From the IMG/VR virus record IMGVR_UViG_3300014913_000017, positions 1 to 52,300 of that record: 52,300 nt of DNA. One strand, 5' to 3'. The position numbers were made by a program, and so were the translations under genes. The notes below the pieces were generated by a model. That model made no database searches and was not told where the DNA came from. It saw only the letters and a list, made by a program, of their open reading frames with translations. Of this stretch, positions 1 to 25,757 are shown in pieces; position 1 is the first letter of the stretch; each line of letters begins with the position of its first letter. This stretch comes from a virus (lineage: Duplodnaviria > Caudoviricetes).

Positions 1-981
1 GTCAACACCGTGGGCAAGCCGTTCAATGAAGCGGAGGCGGACGTGTTGAAGTATTGGGACGATCGCCTCCCCGCTGAAAAAACGGACTGGGCCACGTTCC
101 TGAATGACAACAAGGATCTGGATCCCGGGAGGCGTGTAGATTTTGAAAAGCTGGCCCGCAAGTTTGTGAAGGACACGGGGAAGGGGACGGCCAAGGGAGG
201 GTGGGGTACACCCGAAACCGCCCACCGCTTTGTCAAGGGCACCACGGCGGTGAAGAAAAACGCCATGCCCACGATCGATGGGAAGCGGGCCGGGACTAAG
301 GCCATGCACCCAGTACAACTGGCGAATGGAAAAACCAAATACCCATCAGACTACAGGGAGGCCAACAAGATCCAGCGGGAGGTCAACTCATGGGTGGACA
401 TGGACACGATCGCGGAGCGTGGTGTCCAACGCGCCCGGGGTGACAAGCTGTTGGCCGAATCCTGGCACCCCAAAAACCAGCGGTTGACGCTGTGGTGGTC
501 CAAGCGGCAAGGGATCGGTGGATTCTATTCCGGAAGCCATGCCCGGCACCTGAGTGACACCACCATGTCCGCCAAGTGGCGCACCAAGCGGAGGCAATTC
601 CAGGCCATGAAGTCCATCAACGATCGGGCCCTGAAAGGGGAGGCCGGGTTCGATGCGTTCAAGTATGACGTGGCCCACGAGTGCGGACACGTGCTCCAGG
701 AAATGAACCCCAACGCCAACCACCTGGGCATGGCGATCATGAAGCGGAGGATCAAGGACACCGGGGCCAGGAAAGTGTGGAACCCCAACGGGCAATACTG
801 GCATTATCCGGACACCAGATCCGTGACCAATTACACCTCCGCCACTTACAACGGCTGGCCACCAGGCATTGAATATCCCTCGGAAGGCGTGGCCCAGTTT
901 TGGAAAAACCCCATGCAACTATTCGAGGCGGACCCGGAGCATTTCTTCTATATCACTTCACTGATGCGTGGGGGGATGTGA
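1..981 (+). CDS. 5'-truncated probable minor head/MuF-type protein with C-terminal zincin metallopeptidase (toxin-like) domain
   Basis: Frame open from base 1. HEXXH motif (VAHECGH), downstream Glu (IEYPSEG) and C-terminal DPEHFFYI. Lies directly upstream of scaffold/protease/capsid genes, the usual MuF position. The MuF domain itself is outside the window. Confidence 0.6.
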   Translation, partial: VNTVGKPFNEAEADVLKYWDDRLPAEKTDWATFLNDNKDLDPGRRVDFEKLARKFVKDTGKGTAKGGWGTPETAHRFVKGTTAVKKNAMPTIDGKRAGTKAMHPVQLANGKTKYPSDYREANKIQREVNSWVDMDTIAERGVQRARGDKLLAESWHPKNQRLTLWWSKRQGIGGFYSGSHARHLSDTTMSAKWRTKRRQFQAMKSINDRALKGEAGFDAFKYDVAHECGHVLQEMNPNANHLGMAIMKRRIKDTGARKVWNPNGQYWHYPDTRSVTNYTSATYNGWPPGIEYPSEGVAQFWKNPMQLFEADPEHFFYITSLMRGGM

Positions 982-2389: not shown

Positions 2390-5300
2390 ATGCCCGCTGA
2401 TCACGCACCCACCCACGGAATTTTCCTCCCATCCAAGCTGATCAAGATCCTGGCGGAAGGCCGGGGCCTGGTCCTGTTGTCCCCGGAGGATCGGATGTAC
2501 GATCCGGCCACCACGTACCTGGCGGTGGACACTGGATCGGTGGTGGGCACCATCACCCCAGGCGTGGGAACGTCCATGCCTGTGGCGGAAGCTGTGAAGC
2601 AATCCCACGGGTACAAGCCCGGGGGCATGGCCAAGCGTTGGCCGGACGCGGAATCACTCACGGTGTGGCCCGTCGAGTTTTCCCCGCTGGTGGACCGTGT
2701 GCCCCTGGCCGTCCTGGGGTCCATGGAATACGGGGAGGTGTTCAAGGTGAGCCTGGACGCCCCCGTGGTGACCATGGGCGCGGAGGCCGTCGAGGCGGTC
2801 CGGGAGGCCAAGCGTGGGGCCCGCGCCTGGGCCCAGGGCGTGGCCGGATTCCTGGCGGACGTGGAGGGCCACGTGGGCCCCGGGACAGGTGCCCTCCTGG
2901 GCGCAATGCCCCGCGCCAGCCAGGGCCTCCAGGATGCCCTGAAATCGATCGCAGTCCAGGGGGGTACAAGGGCCCCCGTTTCCGATTTCGCGGGCATGGT
3001 GGACAAGCTGGGCCCCATGGTGGACAAGCTGGCCCAAGCCCTCCCGGAAGGTGACCTCCGGGACGCCATGGAAGCCCGGGCCAGCTACCTGGACGCCCTG
3101 GCCGTGGCTGTCCGGTATGCCAAGGCCAGCCTCCCCGCGTTGAAGCTGCCGGATCCGCTGTGGGTGGTGAAGCGGTTGGGCGCGGACAAGGAGGCCGGGT
3201 TCCTGAGTGAACAGCCCCAGGCCAGCCGTGTGGACCGTGACCAGTACCTGGTCAATGATGTGCTGGCCAAGGAGGGCACCGTGTACGGGCGTCCATTCGC
3301 ATGGGCGATCGTTCGCACGGGTGAGCCCCTCCAGGTGGACCACGCGGACCTGGACCGCCTCCCCGTGGACAAGTCCACGCGGGCAGAGTGGCGGGACCGC
3401 ACGGGGAACAACGCCTGGCACATCCCGATCAAGCTGGTGCGGGAACTGGATCCCCCGGTGGAACTGCGGGACGCACCTCCCGGGGATCGGTTTGCTTCCG
3501 GGCTGGACCTGGTGGCGGAAGCTGTCACCAAGGTGGACCTCCCCGATCCCACGGACCTCCGCACGTTGAAGCCCGCCGCCCTCCAGGCTGTACATGATGA
3601 ACTGGTGGCGGAATGGGAGGCGCGGTACCAGGGATCCGATCAGGTGCAAGGCCGGGAGGATCTGGTCAACGCGATCCTGTTCACTCGCCAGGAATACGAT
3701 CGGCGCGGGATGGACGCCCCCCAGGTTCCCGGTGAACTGGACACGGAACTGGGCGCACTGATCGGGGTGAAGCAAGCCCAGGCGGTGGAGGACACCACGG
3801 GCACCAGGCCCCCGATCACGCTGGCCCAGGTGCTGGACGGAATGAAGAAATCGATCACCCTCCGCCGTGGGGTGGTCACGGTCACGGGCCCGGTGTGCGG
3901 ACAGGGTGCCACACGCAATGACGTGGACCTGGTGATCCAGGGCCCCATGGACGGCGGGCTCCGCAAGGCGTTGGAATCGAGGCTGGGCGGATCCTTCCCG
4001 GCAACGATCAGTCCCCGGCTGAGTTTCCAGCATGACCCGGAACTGATCGGACCGTTCACCGATCACGTGGAGGCATTTGACCTGGTGCTGGCCCCGCGTG
4101 ATCACCATGACGTGGTGGAACTGCGGGCGGTGGAAAAGGCGGGTGATCCCCTCCTGGATATGCCTGCGAAACGTGGACCACGGCAAGCGGTCCTCCAGTA
4201 CCACTGGCGTGGGAAAACCCTCCACGCGGACCTCCGCATGAAGGTGGGATCGGATTTCCTGGTGGGCTGGACCCTGATGCTACAGAAACCAGGGATCCCC
4301 CAACCGGACACGATCGCCCAGGCCAAGGAAATGGCGGGGACGTTCAACCCGGACGGCGGGAAGTACAACAAGGACATGGTGGCACCGGAGGCCGTCCAGG
4401 CCGTCCCGAAAAAGCGGCAACCCGTCGAGTGGTTGCACATGGAAGGTGAAGCGATCGAACCTGGGGAGGTGGGCGCAACCACCAACCTCCCGGGCTTCAT
4501 TGTCGAGATCCCCGGCGGTCCCGATTTCGCGGAACTGGGAATCCAGGGCCCCGCGTTCCATGAATACTTTTTGACGGGTGGATCGAAGCTGATCGGGAGG
4601 CTCATGTTCCGGCAGTTGCCCGGCCGTGATGGTGGGGATCCATTCTGGCGGGCGATCGTTTCCAAGGAACACCTCCCCTCCGTCCTGGATCGGCGGGCGG
4701 TGCGGACAAAGGCCATGCCCCCGGATGGGTACTCATGGATCCCCACGTCCCTGGAACGGGTGACGCCCAAGGAGTTCAGGTACTGGGAACACAAGGGGGA
4801 GGAGGCGCGGAAGATCCGGGACGCCCTGGTGGCTGATCGTTTCTTCACCAAGGACAACGTGAAGATCGTCAACGGGCAGTTTGCCCGCGTCGATTCCACG
4901 CGCAAGTACACGCTGTTTGTGCCGGACGGCATGGACGCGGGCGCGGTGGTGAAGCCCGCACCCAAGTGGGACTGGGTGCTGTCACACCAGGTGTGGAAAG
5001 GCCAACAGGGAACCACGCGGGAGGTGTGGCGTTTCGGCCTGGTGAGACACACCCAGCCGATCCAGTTTGAACTGACCACGGATCCCGTGGCCACGCCTTC
5101 CGTGCCCGCGGTCATGAAACGGTTGAAGGGGAGGGCCCTGTGGGATCTGAACGGTGAAGTGGAACGGGGCCGTGAGTACGGCGGGGACGTGTTCAACGAT
5201 ACCGCCTCCACGCCTTCCCTGATCACCCAGGTGGACAAGGGCACCGCCACGATCCTGGAGGAGGCACCAGGCCGGATCCTGTTGCGCCTCCGTGGTGACA

Positions 5301-6172
5301 GTGTGCGGGGCGTGTTCGCACTCGACGCGGAGGAGGAGGGATCCTCCCAGTGGATGTTGACCAGGACGGAAGGCCAACAGCCCCAGGTGGAAAAGGAGGA
5401 ACCCGTCGAGGAGGAGGCCAAGCCGGAACCGCGCCAGATCGCGGTCAAGGTGGTGGACGGCATGGACCTGGTGGTGGGCCCAGTCAAGGATCCAACCACG
5501 TGGAGGGACGTGATCAAGGTGGGGGAGGATCACTGGGTGACAGTTGGATCCGTTGGCGCGGACACCGGGGCCAAGCCTGGTGACGTGATCGTGATCGATG
5601 CGGACGCGGTGGGATATGAACGGGACGCGGTGGGCAAGCAACGCCTCCAGTGTGGTGGATCGATCGCCACCGCTGGCGCGTCCGTTCCCTTCACCACGGA
5701 ACAGGTGCTGGACCTCCTGGAGGGCGGTGAATTCAACAAGTACGTTGACACTGTGATCGGCAACCTGTTAAAAATCGTAAAGGCCGAACAGGACGCCACG
5801 GCCGATCGTTGCTTTGTTTTCGGGGAGGTTCTAGTCCCCAACATTGGAACCACGGAAGGCGAGGACAGCCAGGGTGACACGTACACGGTGCATGATGTCG
5901 AGGAGGCGTGTTATTCGTTCATGCGTCACGGCCACCGCCACGGCCTCATGCACTCGCAATTCATTGACGGCAAGGTCACCCTCCTGGAAAACTACCTGGC
6001 ACCCATGGACATGACGTTGAAAGATCAGGACGGAGACGAACGCACCATCCCCAGGGGAACCTGGCTGATGAAATGCGAGATCATCGATCCCGATCTGAAA
6101 CAGGCCGTGCGGTCCGGGGACCTGACAGGGTTCAGCGTGGGTGGATCTGGCGTCCGCACCCGGGTAAGGTAA
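2390..6172 (+). CDS. multidomain polyprotein with C-terminal XkdF-like (peptidase S78_2) prohead protease and N-terminal ASCH-like x2, nucleotidyltransferase-like and LigD-phosphoesterase-like x2 cargo domains
   Basis: C-terminus FVFGEVLVP..DSQGD..VEEACYSFM..GLMH..GTWLM..GDLTGFSVGG matches XkdF-type proteases. Internal VTVTGPVCGQGATRNDVDLVI (NTase-like) and VLQYHWRGKTLHADLRM (LigD PE-like). SD AGGAGG favours ATG 2390 over GTG 2366. Confidence 0.75.
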   Translation: MPADHAPTHGIFLPSKLIKILAEGRGLVLLSPEDRMYDPATTYLAVDTGSVVGTITPGVGTSMPVAEAVKQSHGYKPGGMAKRWPDAESLTVWPVEFSPLVDRVPLAVLGSMEYGEVFKVSLDAPVVTMGAEAVEAVREAKRGARAWAQGVAGFLADVEGHVGPGTGALLGAMPRASQGLQDALKSIAVQGGTRAPVSDFAGMVDKLGPMVDKLAQALPEGDLRDAMEARASYLDALAVAVRYAKASLPALKLPDPLWVVKRLGADKEAGFLSEQPQASRVDRDQYLVNDVLAKEGTVYGRPFAWAIVRTGEPLQVDHADLDRLPVDKSTRAEWRDRTGNNAWHIPIKLVRELDPPVELRDAPPGDRFASGLDLVAEAVTKVDLPDPTDLRTLKPAALQAVHDELVAEWEARYQGSDQVQGREDLVNAILFTRQEYDRRGMDAPQVPGELDTELGALIGVKQAQAVEDTTGTRPPITLAQVLDGMKKSITLRRGVVTVTGPVCGQGATRNDVDLVIQGPMDGGLRKALESRLGGSFPATISPRLSFQHDPELIGPFTDHVEAFDLVLAPRDHHDVVELRAVEKAGDPLLDMPAKRGPRQAVLQYHWRGKTLHADLRMKVGSDFLVGWTLMLQKPGIPQPDTIAQAKEMAGTFNPDGGKYNKDMVAPEAVQAVPKKRQPVEWLHMEGEAIEPGEVGATTNLPGFIVEIPGGPDFAELGIQGPAFHEYFLTGGSKLIGRLMFRQLPGRDGGDPFWRAIVSKEHLPSVLDRRAVRTKAMPPDGYSWIPTSLERVTPKEFRYWEHKGEEARKIRDALVADRFFTKDNVKIVNGQFARVDSTRKYTLFVPDGMDAGAVVKPAPKWDWVLSHQVWKGQQGTTREVWRFGLVRHTQPIQFELTTDPVATPSVPAVMKRLKGRALWDLNGEVERGREYGGDVFNDTASTPSLITQVDKGTATILEEAPGRILLRLRGDSVRGVFALDAEEEGSSQWMLTRTEGQQPQVEKEEPVEEEAKPEPRQIAVKVVDGMDLVVGPVKDPTTWRDVIKVGEDHWVTVGSVGADTGAKPGDVIVIDADAVGYERDAVGKQRLQCGGSIATAGASVPFTTEQVLDLLEGGEFNKYVDTVIGNLLKIVKAEQDATADRCFVFGEVLVPNIGTTEGEDSQGDTYTVHDVEEACYSFMRHGHRHGLMHSQFIDGKVTLLENYLAPMDMTLKDQDGDERTIPRGTWLMKCEIIDPDLKQAVRSGDLTGFSVGGSGVRTRVR

Positions 6173-6176
6173 GACC

Positions 6177-7769
6177 ATGAGCGCAACAGGCTTGAAGATC
6201 ACCAAGGGCAAGGACGGAACGTATCGCCTGACCTCCATGGACATCGGGGAGGTGAGCCTTGTTGATCGTGCCGCCAACAAACGGCGGTTCATTTTCGCCA
6301 AGCGGGAGGACACCATGAGCGGTGCAGAGTTGAAGGAAACCCAGGACGGATCCCTGGTGCTGGAAAAGGATCAGGGAACGGACACGGACACGGATCCCAC
6401 CGGGACGGATGACACGGGGGACGTGGCCAAGGGGATCGATCTGTCCGCGGCGAAAAAGGCGGAACTGGCCCCGCTGTCCCACAAGGTGGTGGAGGCCGCC
6501 TTGCACTTCCACAACCAGGTGGCGAGTGCCAAGGAGGTCAAGGAGGGTGCCGCGGTTCCCCAGTCACTGGTGGACGAGGGCAAGGCGTTGAAGGCGGCCC
6601 AGGGTGAACTGGACCGGGCCCTGTTCGGCACGGCGGAAGGTGAGGAGGCCACGGCCAGCGATACCGCGGGGGACGCGGACGTGGAGGACGGTGGTGCCGG
6701 ATCTGCCCCCCCGGCACAGCCGGACAAGGCCAAGGCCACCAAGGCGTTGACCACGGAGGAACGCAACAAGCTGCCGGACGCTGATTTCGCATTGCCCAAG
6801 GAACGGAAGTACCCGATCCCGGACATCAGCCATGCCCGCAACGCCCTGGCCCGTGTGGCCCAGTCCGGGACGGAAGCGGAACAGGCCCAGGTCCGCGCCG
6901 CGGTGGAACGCAAGTACCCGGAACTGAAAAAGGCGGACGGGGACACGGACGCCACGGCGGAAGGTGACACCCCGGACACGGACGCCACCCCGGACACGGA
7001 CGTGGACAAGGCCACCTCCACGCACCAGGCCCTCCTGGATGAAAAGGTGGCGGCCCTGGAAAAGATCCTGGGTGAAATCGTGGGCAAGGTGTCCACCATG
7101 GATCCGGAGGAACTGCGGGCCCGCATGAGCCAGGCGCGTGACATCATGTGGCACATGGAGGAGGCGGTGGACGTGGTGAGCGTGGGCAAGTGCGTGGACG
7201 CCCTGACGGACGCGGACCTGGAGGCCATGGCTTCCGGTGAACTGCCGGACACGCTGGCCAAGGTGGGGCGCAAGATGAGCGGCCGGAACCTGTCCAACTT
7301 CAACGGGGCCCTGGGCACCATCCGTGGCGAGTTGGAAAAGCTGTTCCAACTGTACCGGGCCCTCCTACCCCCGGAGCAACAAGGCAAGGCGGACGCCCTC
7401 CACAAGCGGCTGATCGAAGACATGGGCCTCCCGGAGGTCCCCGCGGACAACGCGGGCGGATCGTTCACGTGGCCGGAATCCCCGGCGGGAACGCTGCCTG
7501 ATGCTGCGGAGCCTGGCCCGGCCAAGGATGAACTGGCCCGGCTGGAAAAGCTGGCCAAGGTCAAGGAGGCGGAGGCCAAGGAACTGCGGGGCAAGCTGGC
7601 CAAGGCGGAAGCGGAAGCGGCCACGGTGCCTCCCCCGTCGAGTGGCCAGGCGGACGGCCCCCAGGCGGGCACCGTCACCAAGGGTGACAGCGGCGGTGAT
7701 GACGACTGGCCCATGGACATGAACATGAGCGAATACCGCCGGAAGGTTGCCTCCGGGGAAACAACCTGA
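6177..7769 (+). CDS. scaffold-like head protein 2 with N-terminal protease segment (EVSLVDRAAN) and DUF6582-like domain
   Basis: N-terminal RLTSMDIGEVSLVDRAANKRRF. ERNKLPDADFALPKERKYPIPDISHARNALAR resembles DUF6582. KVGRKMSGRNL motif, coiled coil and C-terminal DWPMDM. Immediately precedes the capsid gene. Confidence 0.7.
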   Translation: MSATGLKITKGKDGTYRLTSMDIGEVSLVDRAANKRRFIFAKREDTMSGAELKETQDGSLVLEKDQGTDTDTDPTGTDDTGDVAKGIDLSAAKKAELAPLSHKVVEAALHFHNQVASAKEVKEGAAVPQSLVDEGKALKAAQGELDRALFGTAEGEEATASDTAGDADVEDGGAGSAPPAQPDKAKATKALTTEERNKLPDADFALPKERKYPIPDISHARNALARVAQSGTEAEQAQVRAAVERKYPELKKADGDTDATAEGDTPDTDATPDTDVDKATSTHQALLDEKVAALEKILGEIVGKVSTMDPEELRARMSQARDIMWHMEEAVDVVSVGKCVDALTDADLEAMASGELPDTLAKVGRKMSGRNLSNFNGALGTIRGELEKLFQLYRALLPPEQQGKADALHKRLIEDMGLPEVPADNAGGSFTWPESPAGTLPDAAEPGPAKDELARLEKLAKVKEAEAKELRGKLAKAEAEAATVPPPSSGQADGPQAGTVTKGDSGGDDDWPMDMNMSEYRRKVASGETT

Positions 7770-19678: not shown

Positions 19679-21883
19679 ATGAGTGCAACGCAAGGCGCGT
19701 CACGGACGATCATCGAAAGGCTCCCACCAAGCCTGAAAAGCCTGGTGGGCGTGGCGACCTCCACGATCCACCTCACTGGTGTGGCCTTCAAGGGCCCGGT
19801 GGGCCAGGTCACGGGCCCTTACGGCGCGTGGTCCGGGTTCAAAAAGGTGTACGGTGGACTGATCACCACGTCATACCTCCCCGTGACGGTGTGGGGGATC
19901 ATGCGGGCCCCGCGTGGGCTCAAACGGGTGTATATCACCCGGGTGACGCACTTCACCGATCCGGATGACAGGACCACCACCACGGCGGTGGCTGGCACCC
20001 TGAACCTGGCGGGCAACACCACCAACCCCACCCAGGGCGCGGTCACGTCCGGCAATGCCGGAACGTTCAACCTGGAAAGCGGGCAAACCCTGGACATCCA
20101 CTGTGACGAGGACGTGGGTGGACCGGACACGGCCACGTTCACCGGGACGGTGGCCCTCCTTCCGGGTGCCCCGTGGGTGGGCCCCATGCTCCCGGCGGAT
20201 CAACTGACGTTTTTCACGGACGCGGATCCGGATCCACAGGTGGTGGTGTTCGCGGGTGGTGAAACCCTCCAGCAAACCGCGGACCTGATCAACGGTACCG
20301 TGTCCGGGATCACGGCCACGGTGGTGGGCCCGGTGATCGACCTGACCTCCAACACGGAGGGCACGGACGGCCGGGTACAGATCAGCGCGGAGGCTCCCCC
20401 CGGTGTGGCCGCCAAGATCGGTCATGTGGTTGGCCCGGCCGCCGTGGGTGGTGGCAACGTGGCCAATATCGATGCGGTGACATTCGCGGAGGCAAAGTCG
20501 ATCATCGAAGCGGCCGTCGTCAACCCGGTCTCGGGTGTGCTGGTCACGGAGGAACTGACGGGCGAGATCACGATCACCTCCCAGCGCGTGGGTGGTGGCG
20601 TGGGTTCCAGCGTCCAGATCGAAGTGGGCTCCACGGCGGTGGGCTTCAACTTCGACAACCTCCTCCACCAGGGCACCGCGGCCAGCGTTGCCACGGTGGT
20701 GGTGATCGATGCCAAGTACCCGGGTGATCACACGCTCACGATCGATGTGGAGGATCCCACGGATGGGGATGCCACCCACTACAAGATCAAAGTGTACCAG
20801 GCCGGGGAACTGGTGGAGACGTGGGACGACCTCCCGGCGGACAGCGGGGCGGACACGATCGTGAATGACGCGGACGTGGGCTCCACGTGGATCACGCTCA
20901 CGGACCAGGGCGTGGGGTTCCGCCCCACCAACGTGACGGCCCAGGCCGTGGCGGGTGGTTCCACCGGACTGGTGGGCCTGGTGGATGCGGATTTCATCGG
21001 GGACGCGGGGATCAGGTCCACGCGCCTGTGGCCGGACTACATCGCCCTCCGTGCCGTGCCGGGCTGGGCCACCGCGGTGGTGCAACCGGACCTGGTGAAC
21101 TGGTGCGAGGAAACCAACAGCTTTGCCGTCCTGGGCGGGGCGTTCGGTTTCACGGTGGATGGTGTCCGCACATACGTGAAGACCACGGCGGGGCTCAAGG
21201 GCCTTTCGGAATACGGCGCGTTCTACTGGCCGAACGTGAAGATCGCCAACCCGGATACGGACGTGTACGGGGATGACACGGAAATCCTGGTGAACGCGGA
21301 GGGCGCGGTCCTGGCCTCGATCATCGTTCAGGATTCCAAGCCCGGCGGCGTCCATGAGGCCGCGGGCGGACTGGAAAACGGGAGGCTGTGGGGCGTCACG
21401 GACGTGGAAACGGAGGCGGTGTACGATGAGGTGGAACGGGACAAGCTGTACCCGGACCGGATCAACATCATTCACCATGACGCCACCGGGGAGCCGTTCT
21501 ACATCGACGGGTCACGGACCCTGGCCAGCGGTGGACCGTTCCCCTCCATCGGGGAATCCCGCGGTGTGATCTACATCACGGAAACGGTCCGGCAATTCGT
21601 GGACCCCAAGCGCCACCAAAACATCACCCTCCGCCTCCTGGCGGAAGTGCGGAACGCGATCGAACTGTTCCTCCGCAAGGAGGCCAAGCTGGGCGCGTTT
21701 TTCACGGCGGACCCGGCCCAAGCCTTTTACGTGGACACCAGCGAAAACGTGAACCCGCCAAGCGAGCGGGCCAAGCACGTGCTCCACGTGGTGCTGGGGC
21801 TCAACAAGGCGGAACCCGCGGAGTGGATCGTCCTGGAGGTCACCAAGGACACCCGCGCACTGTTTGAGGAACTGGGCCTGTAG
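19679..21883 (+). CDS. contractile tail sheath protein with large inserted domains
   Basis: GVAFKGPVG, FKKVYGG, YGAFYWPNVK, ERDKLYPDRINII, IDGSRTL, AFYVD..NPP, EPAEWIVL sheath motifs. Confidence 0.92.
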   Translation: MSATQGASRTIIERLPPSLKSLVGVATSTIHLTGVAFKGPVGQVTGPYGAWSGFKKVYGGLITTSYLPVTVWGIMRAPRGLKRVYITRVTHFTDPDDRTTTTAVAGTLNLAGNTTNPTQGAVTSGNAGTFNLESGQTLDIHCDEDVGGPDTATFTGTVALLPGAPWVGPMLPADQLTFFTDADPDPQVVVFAGGETLQQTADLINGTVSGITATVVGPVIDLTSNTEGTDGRVQISAEAPPGVAAKIGHVVGPAAVGGGNVANIDAVTFAEAKSIIEAAVVNPVSGVLVTEELTGEITITSQRVGGGVGSSVQIEVGSTAVGFNFDNLLHQGTAASVATVVVIDAKYPGDHTLTIDVEDPTDGDATHYKIKVYQAGELVETWDDLPADSGADTIVNDADVGSTWITLTDQGVGFRPTNVTAQAVAGGSTGLVGLVDADFIGDAGIRSTRLWPDYIALRAVPGWATAVVQPDLVNWCEETNSFAVLGGAFGFTVDGVRTYVKTTAGLKGLSEYGAFYWPNVKIANPDTDVYGDDTEILVNAEGAVLASIIVQDSKPGGVHEAAGGLENGRLWGVTDVETEAVYDEVERDKLYPDRINIIHHDATGEPFYIDGSRTLASGGPFPSIGESRGVIYITETVRQFVDPKRHQNITLRLLAEVRNAIELFLRKEAKLGAFFTADPAQAFYVDTSENVNPPSERAKHVLHVVLGLNKAEPAEWIVLEVTKDTRALFEELGL

Positions 21884-23414: not shown

Positions 23415-25757
23415 ATGGCGGCAGGATTCGGCACCACCGTGAAGTTTTCGGCAACCGCTGAGAACAATGTCAGTGGCCCCATGGACAAGGCCAGCGGATC
23501 CTTGAAGGGTGCTGGCCAGGCGGCTGCGGGTGCTGGCACGTCCCTGTCATCCCTGGGATCGTTGGGCCAGGTGTTGCCCGGTATCATGGGCCCCGCTGCC
23601 GCGTCCATGGGTGCGCTGTCCGCCGCGCTGGGACCGATTGCGATCGGTATCGGACTGATCGTTGGTGCGATCGGTGGCTTCAACATGATCGTGGATGAGG
23701 CCAACCGGGTGATGTCGATTTCAATTGACACGTTCGGCCTGTTTGAAAAGAAACTGGCGGAGGTCCAGACGATCCTGGGCGTCACCAGGAAAGCCATGGA
23801 AGGGGTGACGGACGCTGCCCTGGGCTTTGGTGCCACCTATGGCAAGAGCGCGGCGGAGGAACTGGAGGCGTTTTACGCGACGGCCTCCGCCGGGTTCGCG
23901 GACGCTGCCCAGGCGTCCATGGTCATGGACACGGCCAACAAGCTGGCGGTGGCTGGCGTCACGGACATGAACAGTTCCGTGGACCTCCTCACCACCGTAC
24001 TGAACGGGTTTGGAATTGCTGCGGAGGGTGCGGGCGGTGTCAGTGATGCACTGTTCACCGCGGTGCGGGCTGGAAAAACCACGGTGGGTGAACTGGCCGC
24101 GGCATTCGGCAACGTGGTTCCCTCCGCTTCCGCTGCGGGGGCCACGCTGGAGGACACCCTGTCCGCCATGGCGGCCTTGACCTTGGCCGGGCAGTCCACC
24201 GCGGAGGCGTCCACGGCCCTGGCCCGTGCCTTCGACGTGTTGATCAAACAGCCTCCCCAGGTGCTGGCGGAATTCAAAAAGTTTGGAATCGAGGCGGAGG
24301 ATCTGAACGTCAAGGAACGTGGCCTCCTTCCGGTGATCGAATCCATCAGCCAGGGATTCAAGGGCAATGAGGATGCACTAGCCCAGGCGATCCCCCAGAT
24401 CCGCGCCTTCAAGGCGATCATGCCCCTGGCCGGAAAGCAAATGGAGGCGTTTGTCGGGACACTCGACGCCATGGACGACAAGCTGGGCGCAACCGATCAA
24501 GCCTTCAACACGATCGCCAATACGCTGTCATTCCAGCGGGACCGCTGGAACAGCATGATGGAAGGAATAAAAACGAGGCTGGGCCAGGTGTTTGCCCCCG
24601 CGATTAAAACCGCCCTGGACATCCTGAATGACCTCCTGGGGGTGATCGAGAAACTACCAGCGCCGATCAAAAATACGATCTTTGCAATGGCCGGGATCGG
24701 GTTCGCTTTGCCATCCGTGCTGGGTAAGCTGGGGTCACTGATCTGGACACTCACCAAGCTGGCGGCCGTGGCGTTGGTGGTGGGCAACCTGGTGATCGTT
24801 TTCCAGGGTGCCCTGGCCGGAATGATCCCAGCCCTGGGTGGAATCATTGGACGGGTGATCAAGTTCGCTGTGGCCTGGCGGAAAAACCTGGACAACATCC
24901 AGGACCGTGTAAAGCGGTGGGCCACCAACATCAAACTGATCCTCCGTGGCCTGGGTGAAGCAATCGCAAACGAGGGGATGATCAGCGGACCGCTGGCCAA
25001 GGAACTGGAGGAGGCTGGCGTGGTGTCCTGGGTGGCCAAGCTGTTTGTGGCCTTCGATCGATTGAAGCTGTTTATGGAATCATTCTGGGAGGGGTTCAGC
25101 ACGGCGGTGATCGCTGGCGCGGAATCAATCGGGGAAGCGTTCCCGGAGATCCAGGCGCTGATCGATTTGATCAAGGCGGGCGGGGAGGACGCGGAAGGTT
25201 TCGCCAAGGCCCTGGACCCGGAGGGGATCAAGAAATTCGCAACGGAAACGGGCAAGGCCCTTGGCGAGATCGTCCGGTTCCTGGCGGACGGTGGCCGGGC
25301 GTGGAAGGAAAACCAGGAAACGATCGAGGCTGTGGTTGAAGCCTTGAAGCTCATGGGGGAAGTGATCAAGGCCCTCCTCCCTGTTGCCCAGGCACTGTGG
25401 AAGGTGATCGGACCGATCCTCCAGTTCGGCGCGGATATGCTGGGGCCCCTCCTCGGCGGTGGACCTCCGCCCCAGGTGAAGCCCGCGGGCACGGAGGGCG
25501 GTGTACCCATCGAAGAGGAACCCGCGTCCGCTGGTGAGATCACGGGGTCCATACTGAACGCCGCGATCCCCTCCCTCCTTCAAACCGGGGTGACCGCCGT
25601 TTCACCAGGTGCTGGCCTTGCGTTGCAAGGGCTGGGGGTTGGGAAGCAAGCGATCGAGATCCACACCACCCTGGAGGTGGACAAGGAAAAGCTGGCCTCC
25701 AAGGTGCAACAGGTTGAAGTGGAAACTGGGGAGGAACAGTTTGAGGCTGCGGGGTGA
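23415..25757 (+). CDS. tail tape measure protein (TP901/PhageMin_Tail-like core)
   Basis: FEKKLAEVQTI, YATASAG, AVRAGKTTVGELA, hydrophobic central segments, Ala/Gly-rich helices. Confidence 0.92.
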   Translation: MAAGFGTTVKFSATAENNVSGPMDKASGSLKGAGQAAAGAGTSLSSLGSLGQVLPGIMGPAAASMGALSAALGPIAIGIGLIVGAIGGFNMIVDEANRVMSISIDTFGLFEKKLAEVQTILGVTRKAMEGVTDAALGFGATYGKSAAEELEAFYATASAGFADAAQASMVMDTANKLAVAGVTDMNSSVDLLTTVLNGFGIAAEGAGGVSDALFTAVRAGKTTVGELAAAFGNVVPSASAAGATLEDTLSAMAALTLAGQSTAEASTALARAFDVLIKQPPQVLAEFKKFGIEAEDLNVKERGLLPVIESISQGFKGNEDALAQAIPQIRAFKAIMPLAGKQMEAFVGTLDAMDDKLGATDQAFNTIANTLSFQRDRWNSMMEGIKTRLGQVFAPAIKTALDILNDLLGVIEKLPAPIKNTIFAMAGIGFALPSVLGKLGSLIWTLTKLAAVALVVGNLVIVFQGALAGMIPALGGIIGRVIKFAVAWRKNLDNIQDRVKRWATNIKLILRGLGEAIANEGMISGPLAKELEEAGVVSWVAKLFVAFDRLKLFMESFWEGFSTAVIAGAESIGEAFPEIQALIDLIKAGGEDAEGFAKALDPEGIKKFATETGKALGEIVRFLADGGRAWKENQETIEAVVEALKLMGEVIKALLPVAQALWKVIGPILQFGADMLGPLLGGGPPPQVKPAGTEGGVPIEEEPASAGEITGSILNAAIPSLLQTGVTAVSPGAGLALQGLGVGKQAIEIHTTLEVDKEKLASKVQQVEVETGEEQFEAAG

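Follow-up and report, generated by a model that had tools for sequence, protein, structure and literature searches.

A prohead protease core and its putative completing strand on two neighbouring genes of a metagenomic phage contig

To our knowledge, prohead proteases have been viewed either as enzymes made of a single chain or as fusions of an enzyme with its own scaffold. Here we describe a locus in the IMG/VR virus record IMGVR_UViG_3300014913_000017 (Duplodnaviria; Caudoviricetes; positions 1 to 52,300, hereafter the window), a single metagenomic viral contig of 52.3 kb with ~63% G+C and an estimated completeness of 48%. In this locus a large polyvalent protein with a putative head/cargo role (ORF1) has a truncated protease core as its C-terminal end, and a strand module of the same protease family opens the next gene (ORF2), which encodes a scaffold-like protein. 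We consider it probable that the two products form a two-gene assemblin-fold (HK97/XkdF-type) prohead protease, in which the strand module, below called the hook, would complete the fold and tether the cargo-protease to the scaffold.

The closest described systems share these parts in other arrangements. Classical XkdF proteins (PF14550, PHROG 3017), such as the "prohead protease" of Bacillus phage 0105phi7-2 and ORF34 of Lactococcus phage 50901, have the same core and module, with the His and GxSxGG serine motifs, the segment ..VS[YI]VDKAANKK.FF, a scaffold part next in line and a gene position just before the major capsid gene. There, however, one chain runs from module through core to scaffold, whereas in the window a much larger protein has the core at its end and the scaffold gene opens with the module. 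HK97 gp4-type proteases (PF04586, represented by locus L005) follow the same DNA order of core, GFSxGG strand, turn, E[LV]SLVD..AN strand and scaffold-like tail, but L005 is one polypeptide, while in the window the hairpin turn is where one gene stops and the next one starts. T4 gp21 (PDB 5JBL) and herpesvirus assemblin share the fold, as judged from the model of the fused relative L005, and both are single chains, in contrast to the two gene products here.

Two further kinds of system offer partial parallels. In flavivirus NS2B-NS3 and hepatitis C virus NS3-NS4A, a cofactor strand from another polypeptide completes the protease barrel; strand insertion and tethering resemble what we propose for the hook, although fold and viruses are unrelated and the analogy is one of mechanism only. 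In lambda C/Nu3 and Mu I/Z, an in-frame internal start yields a short scaffold nested in a longer protease-related protein, whereas the long form of ORF2 bears one strand module of a protease and not an enzyme.

The relevant passages on gp21 describe an enzyme that is regulated by cleaving its own N-terminus rather than through a second gene product (PMC9958956). ORF1 and its relatives also resemble the polyvalent proteins in being multi-domain proteins with a peptidase at the very C-terminus; the passages of Iyer et al. 2017 (PMC5512222) devoted to assemblin-like peptidases place them "always at the C termini" of polyvalent proteins, and contain no mention of a fold cut short or of a last strand opening the next gene. 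Our literature search yielded no account of a prohead protease encoded by two genes; the architecture supplements of Iyer 2017/2021, which lay outside this search, may bear on the point. The enzyme family and the polyvalent proteins were already known, while the split of the fold and the nested scaffold start are undescribed in the literature searched.

Two pieces of one protease family on adjacent genes

All features of the locus lie on the plus strand. ORF1 (P0001; 2366..6172) comprises 1268 residues from GTG 2366 or 1260 residues from ATG 2390, and a database protein of 1260 residues that is 100% identical to it (P0014) implies the ATG start at 2390. Its XkdF-type (Peptidase_S78_2) protease core, residues 1145-1264 (5798..6157), matches PF14550 with 65.5 bits against a gathering cut-off of 24, and a genome scan puts the same core at 5795-6157 with 70.7 bits. 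The core contains the codons of the catalytic residues H1196 (5951-5953) and S1257 (6134-6136). The serine strand GFSVGGSGVRTRVR, the first arm of the hairpin, makes up the last 14 residues of ORF1 (6128..6169), whose C-terminus reads ...LTGFSVGGSGVRTRVR before the stop TAA at 6170-6172. At the junction (6165..6172), a TAAGGT resembling a Shine-Dalgarno (SD) sequence (6165-6170) overlaps this stop.

The long form of ORF2 (P0002; 530 residues; 6177..7769), a hook followed by a scaffold-like part, begins with ATG 6177, 4 nt past the ORF1 stop and in the +1 frame relative to ORF1. Its N-terminus reads MSATGLKITKGKDGTYRLTSMDIGEVSLVDRAANKRRFIFAK (longer stretch MSATGLKITKGKDGTYRLTSMDIGEVSLVDRAANKRRFIFAKREDTM), and the hook, the second hairpin arm, occupies residues 14-39 (GTYRLTSMDIGEVSLVDRAANKRRFI; 6216..6293) and includes the strand segment ..YRLTSMDIGEVSLVDRAANKRRF. 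A preliminary description of this DNA had reported just such a layout of stop, 4-nt gap, changed frame and SD-like TAAGGT, and the coordinates bear it out. ORF2 lies between the protease core and the gene of the major capsid protein (P0003; 7893..8822; phrog_1623, E 1.1e-90; PF05065); exactly one core and one strand module are present within the window.

Independent profile libraries put both pieces on one family profile, and by these sequence comparisons the match at the junction is beyond chance. On phrog_3017 (head maturation protease, 402 positions), ORF2 residues 16-47 align with positions 3-34 (E 4.3e-6) and ORF1 residues 1136-1264 with positions 41-154 (E 1.2e-18). The single-chain layout of this family, with module and scaffold in the chain of the core, is not what the locus encodes: the module is on ORF2 and the core on ORF1, which a hidden Markov model (HMM) scan found to be without a strand module. 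PF04586 (Peptidase_S78) matched neither ORF at E 0.1. The columns of H1196 and S1257 are invariant across 66 cores and 69 full proteins; D39, H68, E80 and S129 are among the invariant residues of the 140-residue core segment, and L18, V29, D30, A33 and K42 are invariant in the hook (44 sequences). Relatives of ORF2 belong to phrog_13975, and the C-terminal part of one of them matches the scaffold part of phrog_3017. Searching ORF2 residues 1-60 by tblastn against 50,697 phage records gave no match at E 0.01, a query too short to conclude from, and a word-indexed search with the same residues recovered just 3 close relatives.

It had also been stated in the preliminary description that HK97-type proteases carry GFSxG and EVSLV in one chain and that many XkdF-type proteins carry the latter segment at their N-terminus, in permuted order; both statements hold. 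L005 (capsid 32% identical) encodes a single 474-residue chain of core, GFSIGGKIKRKSKQY, turn, EYGVIDDYDLIELSLVDNPAN and scaffold-like tail, which matches PF04586 (residues 98-168 at profile positions 83-155) as well as PF14550, and L005-like database clusters number at least 7999. The XkdF proteins of Bacillus phage 0105phi7-2 and Lactococcus phage 50901 start with the module, ..V[ST][FH]VS[IY]VDKAANKK.FFLTK, followed by core and then scaffold. An HMM of the hook found it before the core (P0013 residues 4-41, 6.8e-12; P0012 residues 2-40, 2.2e-10; classical XkdF) and after the core (P0020 residues 295-334, 5e-7, right behind the first core), with a weak match on L005 residues 146-160 (independent E value, i-E, 0.013). 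As far as sequence can tell, the module is equivalent across three topologies: in a separate gene, after the core and before the core.

P0020 (592 residues) itself carries two cores in one chain, the first with its own strand module and a DUF6582-like middle, the second ending the protein in the fashion of the split type. Such a tandem is of the kind expected en route to a circular permutation and is compatible with an intermediate of that process, as had been raised for the arrangement in the window.

Structure models and the proposed role of the hook

An AlphaFold2 (AF2) model of the fused relative L005 was built for residues 1-190 from a 41-row alignment, with a predicted local distance difference test score (pLDDT) of 73. 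In this model, strands 120-134 (serine motif) and 140-155 (ELSLV) form the first and second arms of a hairpin. VIA-align superposed it on T4 gp21 (5jbl_C) with Z 12.5 and a root-mean-square deviation of 3.1 over 132 residues (model range 12..159), and on the human cytomegalovirus protease with Z 7.0. Since the range 12..159 covers the module, the latter would lie inside the conserved fold, and the gene boundary of the split pair in the hairpin turn. Foldseek alone found T4 gp21 with E 4e-3, short of the E 0.001 line, and when the fused-family alignment was run as a profile against solved structures, only coiled-coil noise from the scaffold part came back.

According to the preliminary description, the N-terminus of the scaffold completes the protease in trans. 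Complex prediction with the 140-residue core (66-row alignment) and ORF2 residues 1-60 (44-row alignment) agrees with this in placing the ORF2 N-terminus against the serine-bearing strand of the core. The predicted complex passes with a score of 0.79, against 0.34 for the best of 3 controls; solved complexes attained the pass mark in 58 of 80 cases and mismatched pairs in 2 of 110, counts that are rough, with custom alignments used. Contact agreement between runs was at least 84% and the pLDDT of the partner at least 54. The predicted interface joins hook residues 14-33 and 36-39 to core residues 23-27, 38, 41-45, 52-57, 62-68 and 123-140, the tightest pairs being core S129 with hook V26 and S27. 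The hook Glu would fall roughly where the third triad residue of T4-type proteases sits; in the passages of PMC5694885 that align SPN3US gp245 (H77/S153/D178) to gp21, that residue stands ~25 residues past the serine.

The alternative that survives best, although we consider it unlikely, is that the core is a complete, autonomous protease and that the module serves the scaffold in another role: as a pseudo-substrate or inhibitor masking the active site until assembly, as a cleavage or recognition site, or as an element binding capsid or portal. The XkdF Pfam model (PF14550, 126 positions) ends before the module, and ORF1 covers nearly all of it (positions 9-124), so the core may fold and work alone, and the invariant D39, H68, E80 and S129 suffice for a triad without the hook. 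The contacts predicted at the serine strand lie where an inhibitor would also touch, and the passages on gp21 in PMC9958956 state that its own N-terminal region, located in the catalytic centre, keeps it inactive.

Several other observations weigh against completion of the fold by the hook. With an unrelated chain 1, the control complex still scored 0.34, the pLDDT of the hook being only 54-56, and in these models the hook strand looks generically sticky; the pass may also only reflect likeness to solved single-chain relatives such as T4 gp21. Classical XkdF proteins have H or F in place of the Glu of EVSLV, and for this reason a catalytic role of the hook Glu (E25) is doubtful. Adjacency is not absolute either: among the loci surveyed below, L088, L108 and L168 carry the module 1.3-2.7 kb downstream of the core gene, and the HMM detected none in L058, L077 and L080. 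For the short scaffold described in the last section, the window itself offers a single sign, a GGGAGG placed 5 nt before an ATG.

Against an autonomous core stands the fact that the module is a regular strand of the fold in single-chain relatives, aligned within the gp21 fold range. The three topologies, together with one natural in-frame fusion (L101), suit a structural element better than a substrate. Completion of the fold by the hook is the reading we prefer.

Conservation of the split and a changing junction

The preliminary description had proposed homologues as the test of whether the split is conserved, and core and module were found on separate genes in 154 of the 160 loci examined. 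Survey 1 comprised 80 IMG/VR loci picked by the pattern L[TD]GFS[IV]GG[STA] and tblastn, regardless of the sequence past the motif. By regular expression, the strand motif lay in the downstream ORF in 67/80 and in the same chain in 0/80; the module HMM placed it in a separate downstream ORF in 77/80, in the same chain in none, and nowhere in the remaining 3. As this HMM was built from 44 N-termini of survey 1, its matches there are partly circular. Survey 2, whose loci were outside the HMM set, covered 80 loci of GTDB bacterial genomes, mostly Myxococcota prophages and including Myxococcus xanthus and Corallococcus isolates: 77/80 were separate, one was an in-frame fusion (L101), and two had less than 300 nt of downstream room.

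A search of the 140-residue core by phmmer against 1.84 billion representatives gave 3456 matches at E 0.001. Among the best 150 of these, 139 end at most 20 residues past GFSxGG and 143 at most 40 residues past it, and a further C-terminal domain follows the core in 7. By these counts the split is the norm for a large subfamily and not a quirk of this contig.

The junction itself varies. The 4-nt gap recurs in L003 and L002 (capsid 94% identical), while in L004 (capsid 71% identical) the TGA of GFSVGGTGTRQEAGA-TGA overlaps the ATG of MKRITKDTDGTYRLRDMDIEEVSMVDRAAN.. (ATGA), the two frames being related differently. Survey 1 contains all three frame relations (52/14/11), and the distance from the stop to the HMM match runs from -274 (L069) to +2687 nt (median 18 nt). 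Start/stop overlaps (ATGA, GTGA, TTGA) are present in 51/80 IMG/VR and 72/80 genome loci. Judged from these comparisons, the split is real and old, and its junction has changed between relatives.

These figures bear directly on the two remaining alternatives. In one, programmed frameshifting or read-through would yield a single-chain protease from ORF1 and ORF2. The ORFs are just 4 nt apart, their order of core and then strand is collinear with HK97-type proteases, and one relative (L101) is fused in frame. The survey figures nevertheless exclude a fixed recoding site, given the spread of frame relations and distances, and overlaps of the kind seen in both surveys are typical of coupled separate cistrons. 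In the window, moreover, each frame meets a closing TAA within the same 8 nt (6165-6167 for ORF2, 6170-6172 for ORF1), which leaves just 2 bases for a change of frame, and there is no slippery heptamer; we regard such joining as very improbable. Still less credible is an indel introduced by sequencing or assembly, or a pseudogene in decay, to which a single metagenomic contig of partial completeness might lend itself, since contigs from other samples show the same or different junctions, the 154 split loci exclude an assembly error, and the contig of run X1 has 0 differences from the window over 6049-6600, although X1 is not independent and may be the source sample (run X2 reaches only both ends of the window).

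Individual loci depart from the common pattern in several ways. In L088, L108 and L168, other genes are intercalated between the core gene and the hook gene. In L069 (3462-4270) the core ORF continues for ~120 residues in a G+C-rich frame and thereby crosses the beginning of the hook gene, a lost stop or a sequencing frameshift. The fusion in L101 (2792-3100) joins core and hook-scaffold through a repeat-rich linker of ~50 residues (PPQDSGLK[ST]QD twice); it sits in a contig of a metagenome-assembled genome, where an assembly error is possible, and its close sister L097 has the usual overlapping split. An extra domain of ~150 residues (..KREYKTDYGFIP....IHQIKALLNQEP..) stands between core and stop in L016, L020 and L024 and in P0043, P0117, P0122 and P0131, and there the hook gene is still next in line.

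Pseudomonas phage vB_PpuM-Kassivere was considered as a cultured example and was not counted, the hook HMM reaching only i-E 0.13. In this phage (L006 3003-4375), a gene of 154 residues encodes a core only and is annotated as "DNA methyltransferase"; a hypothetical gene of 303 residues (phrog_4103) overlaps it by ATGA and begins ..KLTDISFEHEGAHVALVG..GAAN. The sequences of this pair may represent a diverged split. The "DNA methyltransferase" label of phrog_1530 probably derives from fusions of methyltransferase and core.

Putative cargo domains, a predicted nested scaffold start and the proposed assembly

Upstream of the core, ORF1 residues 560-1010 (4043..5395) form a LigD 3'-phosphoesterase-like fold region, identified by AF2, Foldseek and tblastn. 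The AF2 model has a mean pLDDT of 84.6, and Foldseek matched it to the LigD 3'-phosphoesterases 3p43 and 3n9b (prob 1.00, E 1.3e-5 to 4e-4) with template modelling scores, relative to the target, of 0.60-0.79; tblastn found the ANMV-1 "ATP-dependent DNA ligase" with 28% identity (E 7e-31). By eye, the region holds two HxHxDxR-like segments (QYHWRGKTLHADLRMKV and a second, weaker one near residue 870). The segment at residues ~490-530 (~3830-3960), ITLRRGVVTVTGPVCGQGATRNDVDLVIQGP, resembles by eye a Pol-beta-type nucleotidyltransferase motif, and no family search reached it; Protein Atlas returned nothing for residues 480-1010. ORF1 thus has the layout of a polyvalent protein, with the LigD-phosphoesterase fold upstream and the protease core as its last domain.

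Relatives of ORF1 carry other partners. A Pfam scan of 69 core-bearing relatives of at least 250 residues, taken by rank up to 48,324 residues from the best 150 of the 3456 core matches, found a D12 methyltransferase in 8, a DNA ligase adenylation domain in 8 and InPase in 8, besides AAA in 2, Tad3 in 2, DUF6582 in 2 and a LigT-type domain in 1. P0015 (1879 residues), an orthologue of ORF1, has two insertions that are absent from ORF1: an intein (Hint_2 and LAGLIDADG_3) at the position of ORF1 residue ~730 and, at ORF1 residues ~1023-1030, the adenylation domain of an ATP-dependent DNA ligase. DUF6582 (PF20223) is found in ORF2 in the window (residues 194-235; 6756..6881; 28.3 bits, cut-off 27.3), whereas P0024 and P0114 have it ahead of the core on the core's own chain. 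Its occurrence on either partner indicates that the domain shuffles between both genes.

ORF2 itself appears to encode a second, shorter product. Just past the hook in the window, a GGGAGG (6304-6309) sits 5 nt before an in-frame ATG (6315-6317, Met47), so that the internal start signal spans 6304..6317 and a short form at 6315..7769 is predicted. Across relatives, counting distinct sequences, 53 of 66 from IMG/VR and 46 of 51 from genomes have an in-frame ATG 4-11 codons past the closing Lys of the hook, and an SD-like tetramer precedes it in 53/53 and 45/46 of these, compared with 50/239 and 21/89 control in-frame ATGs of the same ORFs (21-24%). The Arg codon after the closing Lys is AGG in 29/51 and 42/51, a codon that is rare elsewhere in the same ORFs (22/608 and 23/524); this enrichment points to selection at the nucleotide level. 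On these sequence patterns, a scaffold without the hook is likely the major product.

Beyond this locus, the head module of the window is followed by tail genes. The stretches 19679-21883 and 23415-25757 hold tail sheath-like (phrog_17610/15814) and tape-measure genes, which suggest that the phage is myovirus-like. Upstream, the ORFs at 1-981 and 1412-2326 gave no match to PHROGs, and no portal or terminase was recognised in 1-2326.

In the assembly pathway that we propose, ORF1 would be a large cargo protein whose last ~135 residues form a core with the catalytic His and Ser, ending where the serine strand ends, in the turn of a beta-hairpin. The frequent start/stop overlaps suggest that the cargo-protease and the hook-bearing long scaffold would be made side by side through coupling, and could pair before assembly. 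Through beta-strand complementation, the ORF2 arm would pair with the core's serine strand. This would finish the sheet and, we infer, hook the cargo-protease to a scaffold molecule that carries it into the procapsid and raise its activity. The internal SD and ATG would meanwhile yield the bulk of the scaffold without a hook, and this short scaffold would build the procapsid with the capsid protein around the tethered cargo-protease, which would then process scaffold, capsid and its own cargo, releasing the latter. Since the partners could already pair in the cytoplasm if their synthesis is coupled, an activity gated strictly by procapsid assembly, which the preliminary description had supposed, is not implied.

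A more far-reaching version would make the system a general lock-and-key cargo loader, with coupled synthesis, strand complementation, a protease competent only in the procapsid and self-release; we regard this as a tentative possibility with the odds against it. Any enzyme ahead of the core (ligase-like, methyltransferase, pyrophosphatase or the anti-Thoeris Tad3) would then be loadable cargo, the hook would complete the sheet beside the catalytic serine and perhaps add an acidic residue, and the protease would cut itself free, so that the cargo leaves with the DNA. If this were true, keeping an active protease out of the cytoplasm could blunt host sensors that respond to phage protease activity, for example the cyclic-oligonucleotide-based antiphage signalling system (CBASS) dealt with in passages of PMC12991175.

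For annotation, the finding concerns cores now labelled "DNA methyltransferase", "terminase" or hypothetical, and hook scaffolds placed in the function-unknown phrog_13975. Overall, these results describe a large group of phages and prophages in which two genes naturally share the encoding of one fold. Should folding or activity depend on the hook, this would explain the C-terminal placement of assemblin-like peptidases in polyvalent proteins, would give a simple rule for loading injected cargo enzymes into capsids, and would provide a natural split-protein pair for the engineering of capsid cargo.

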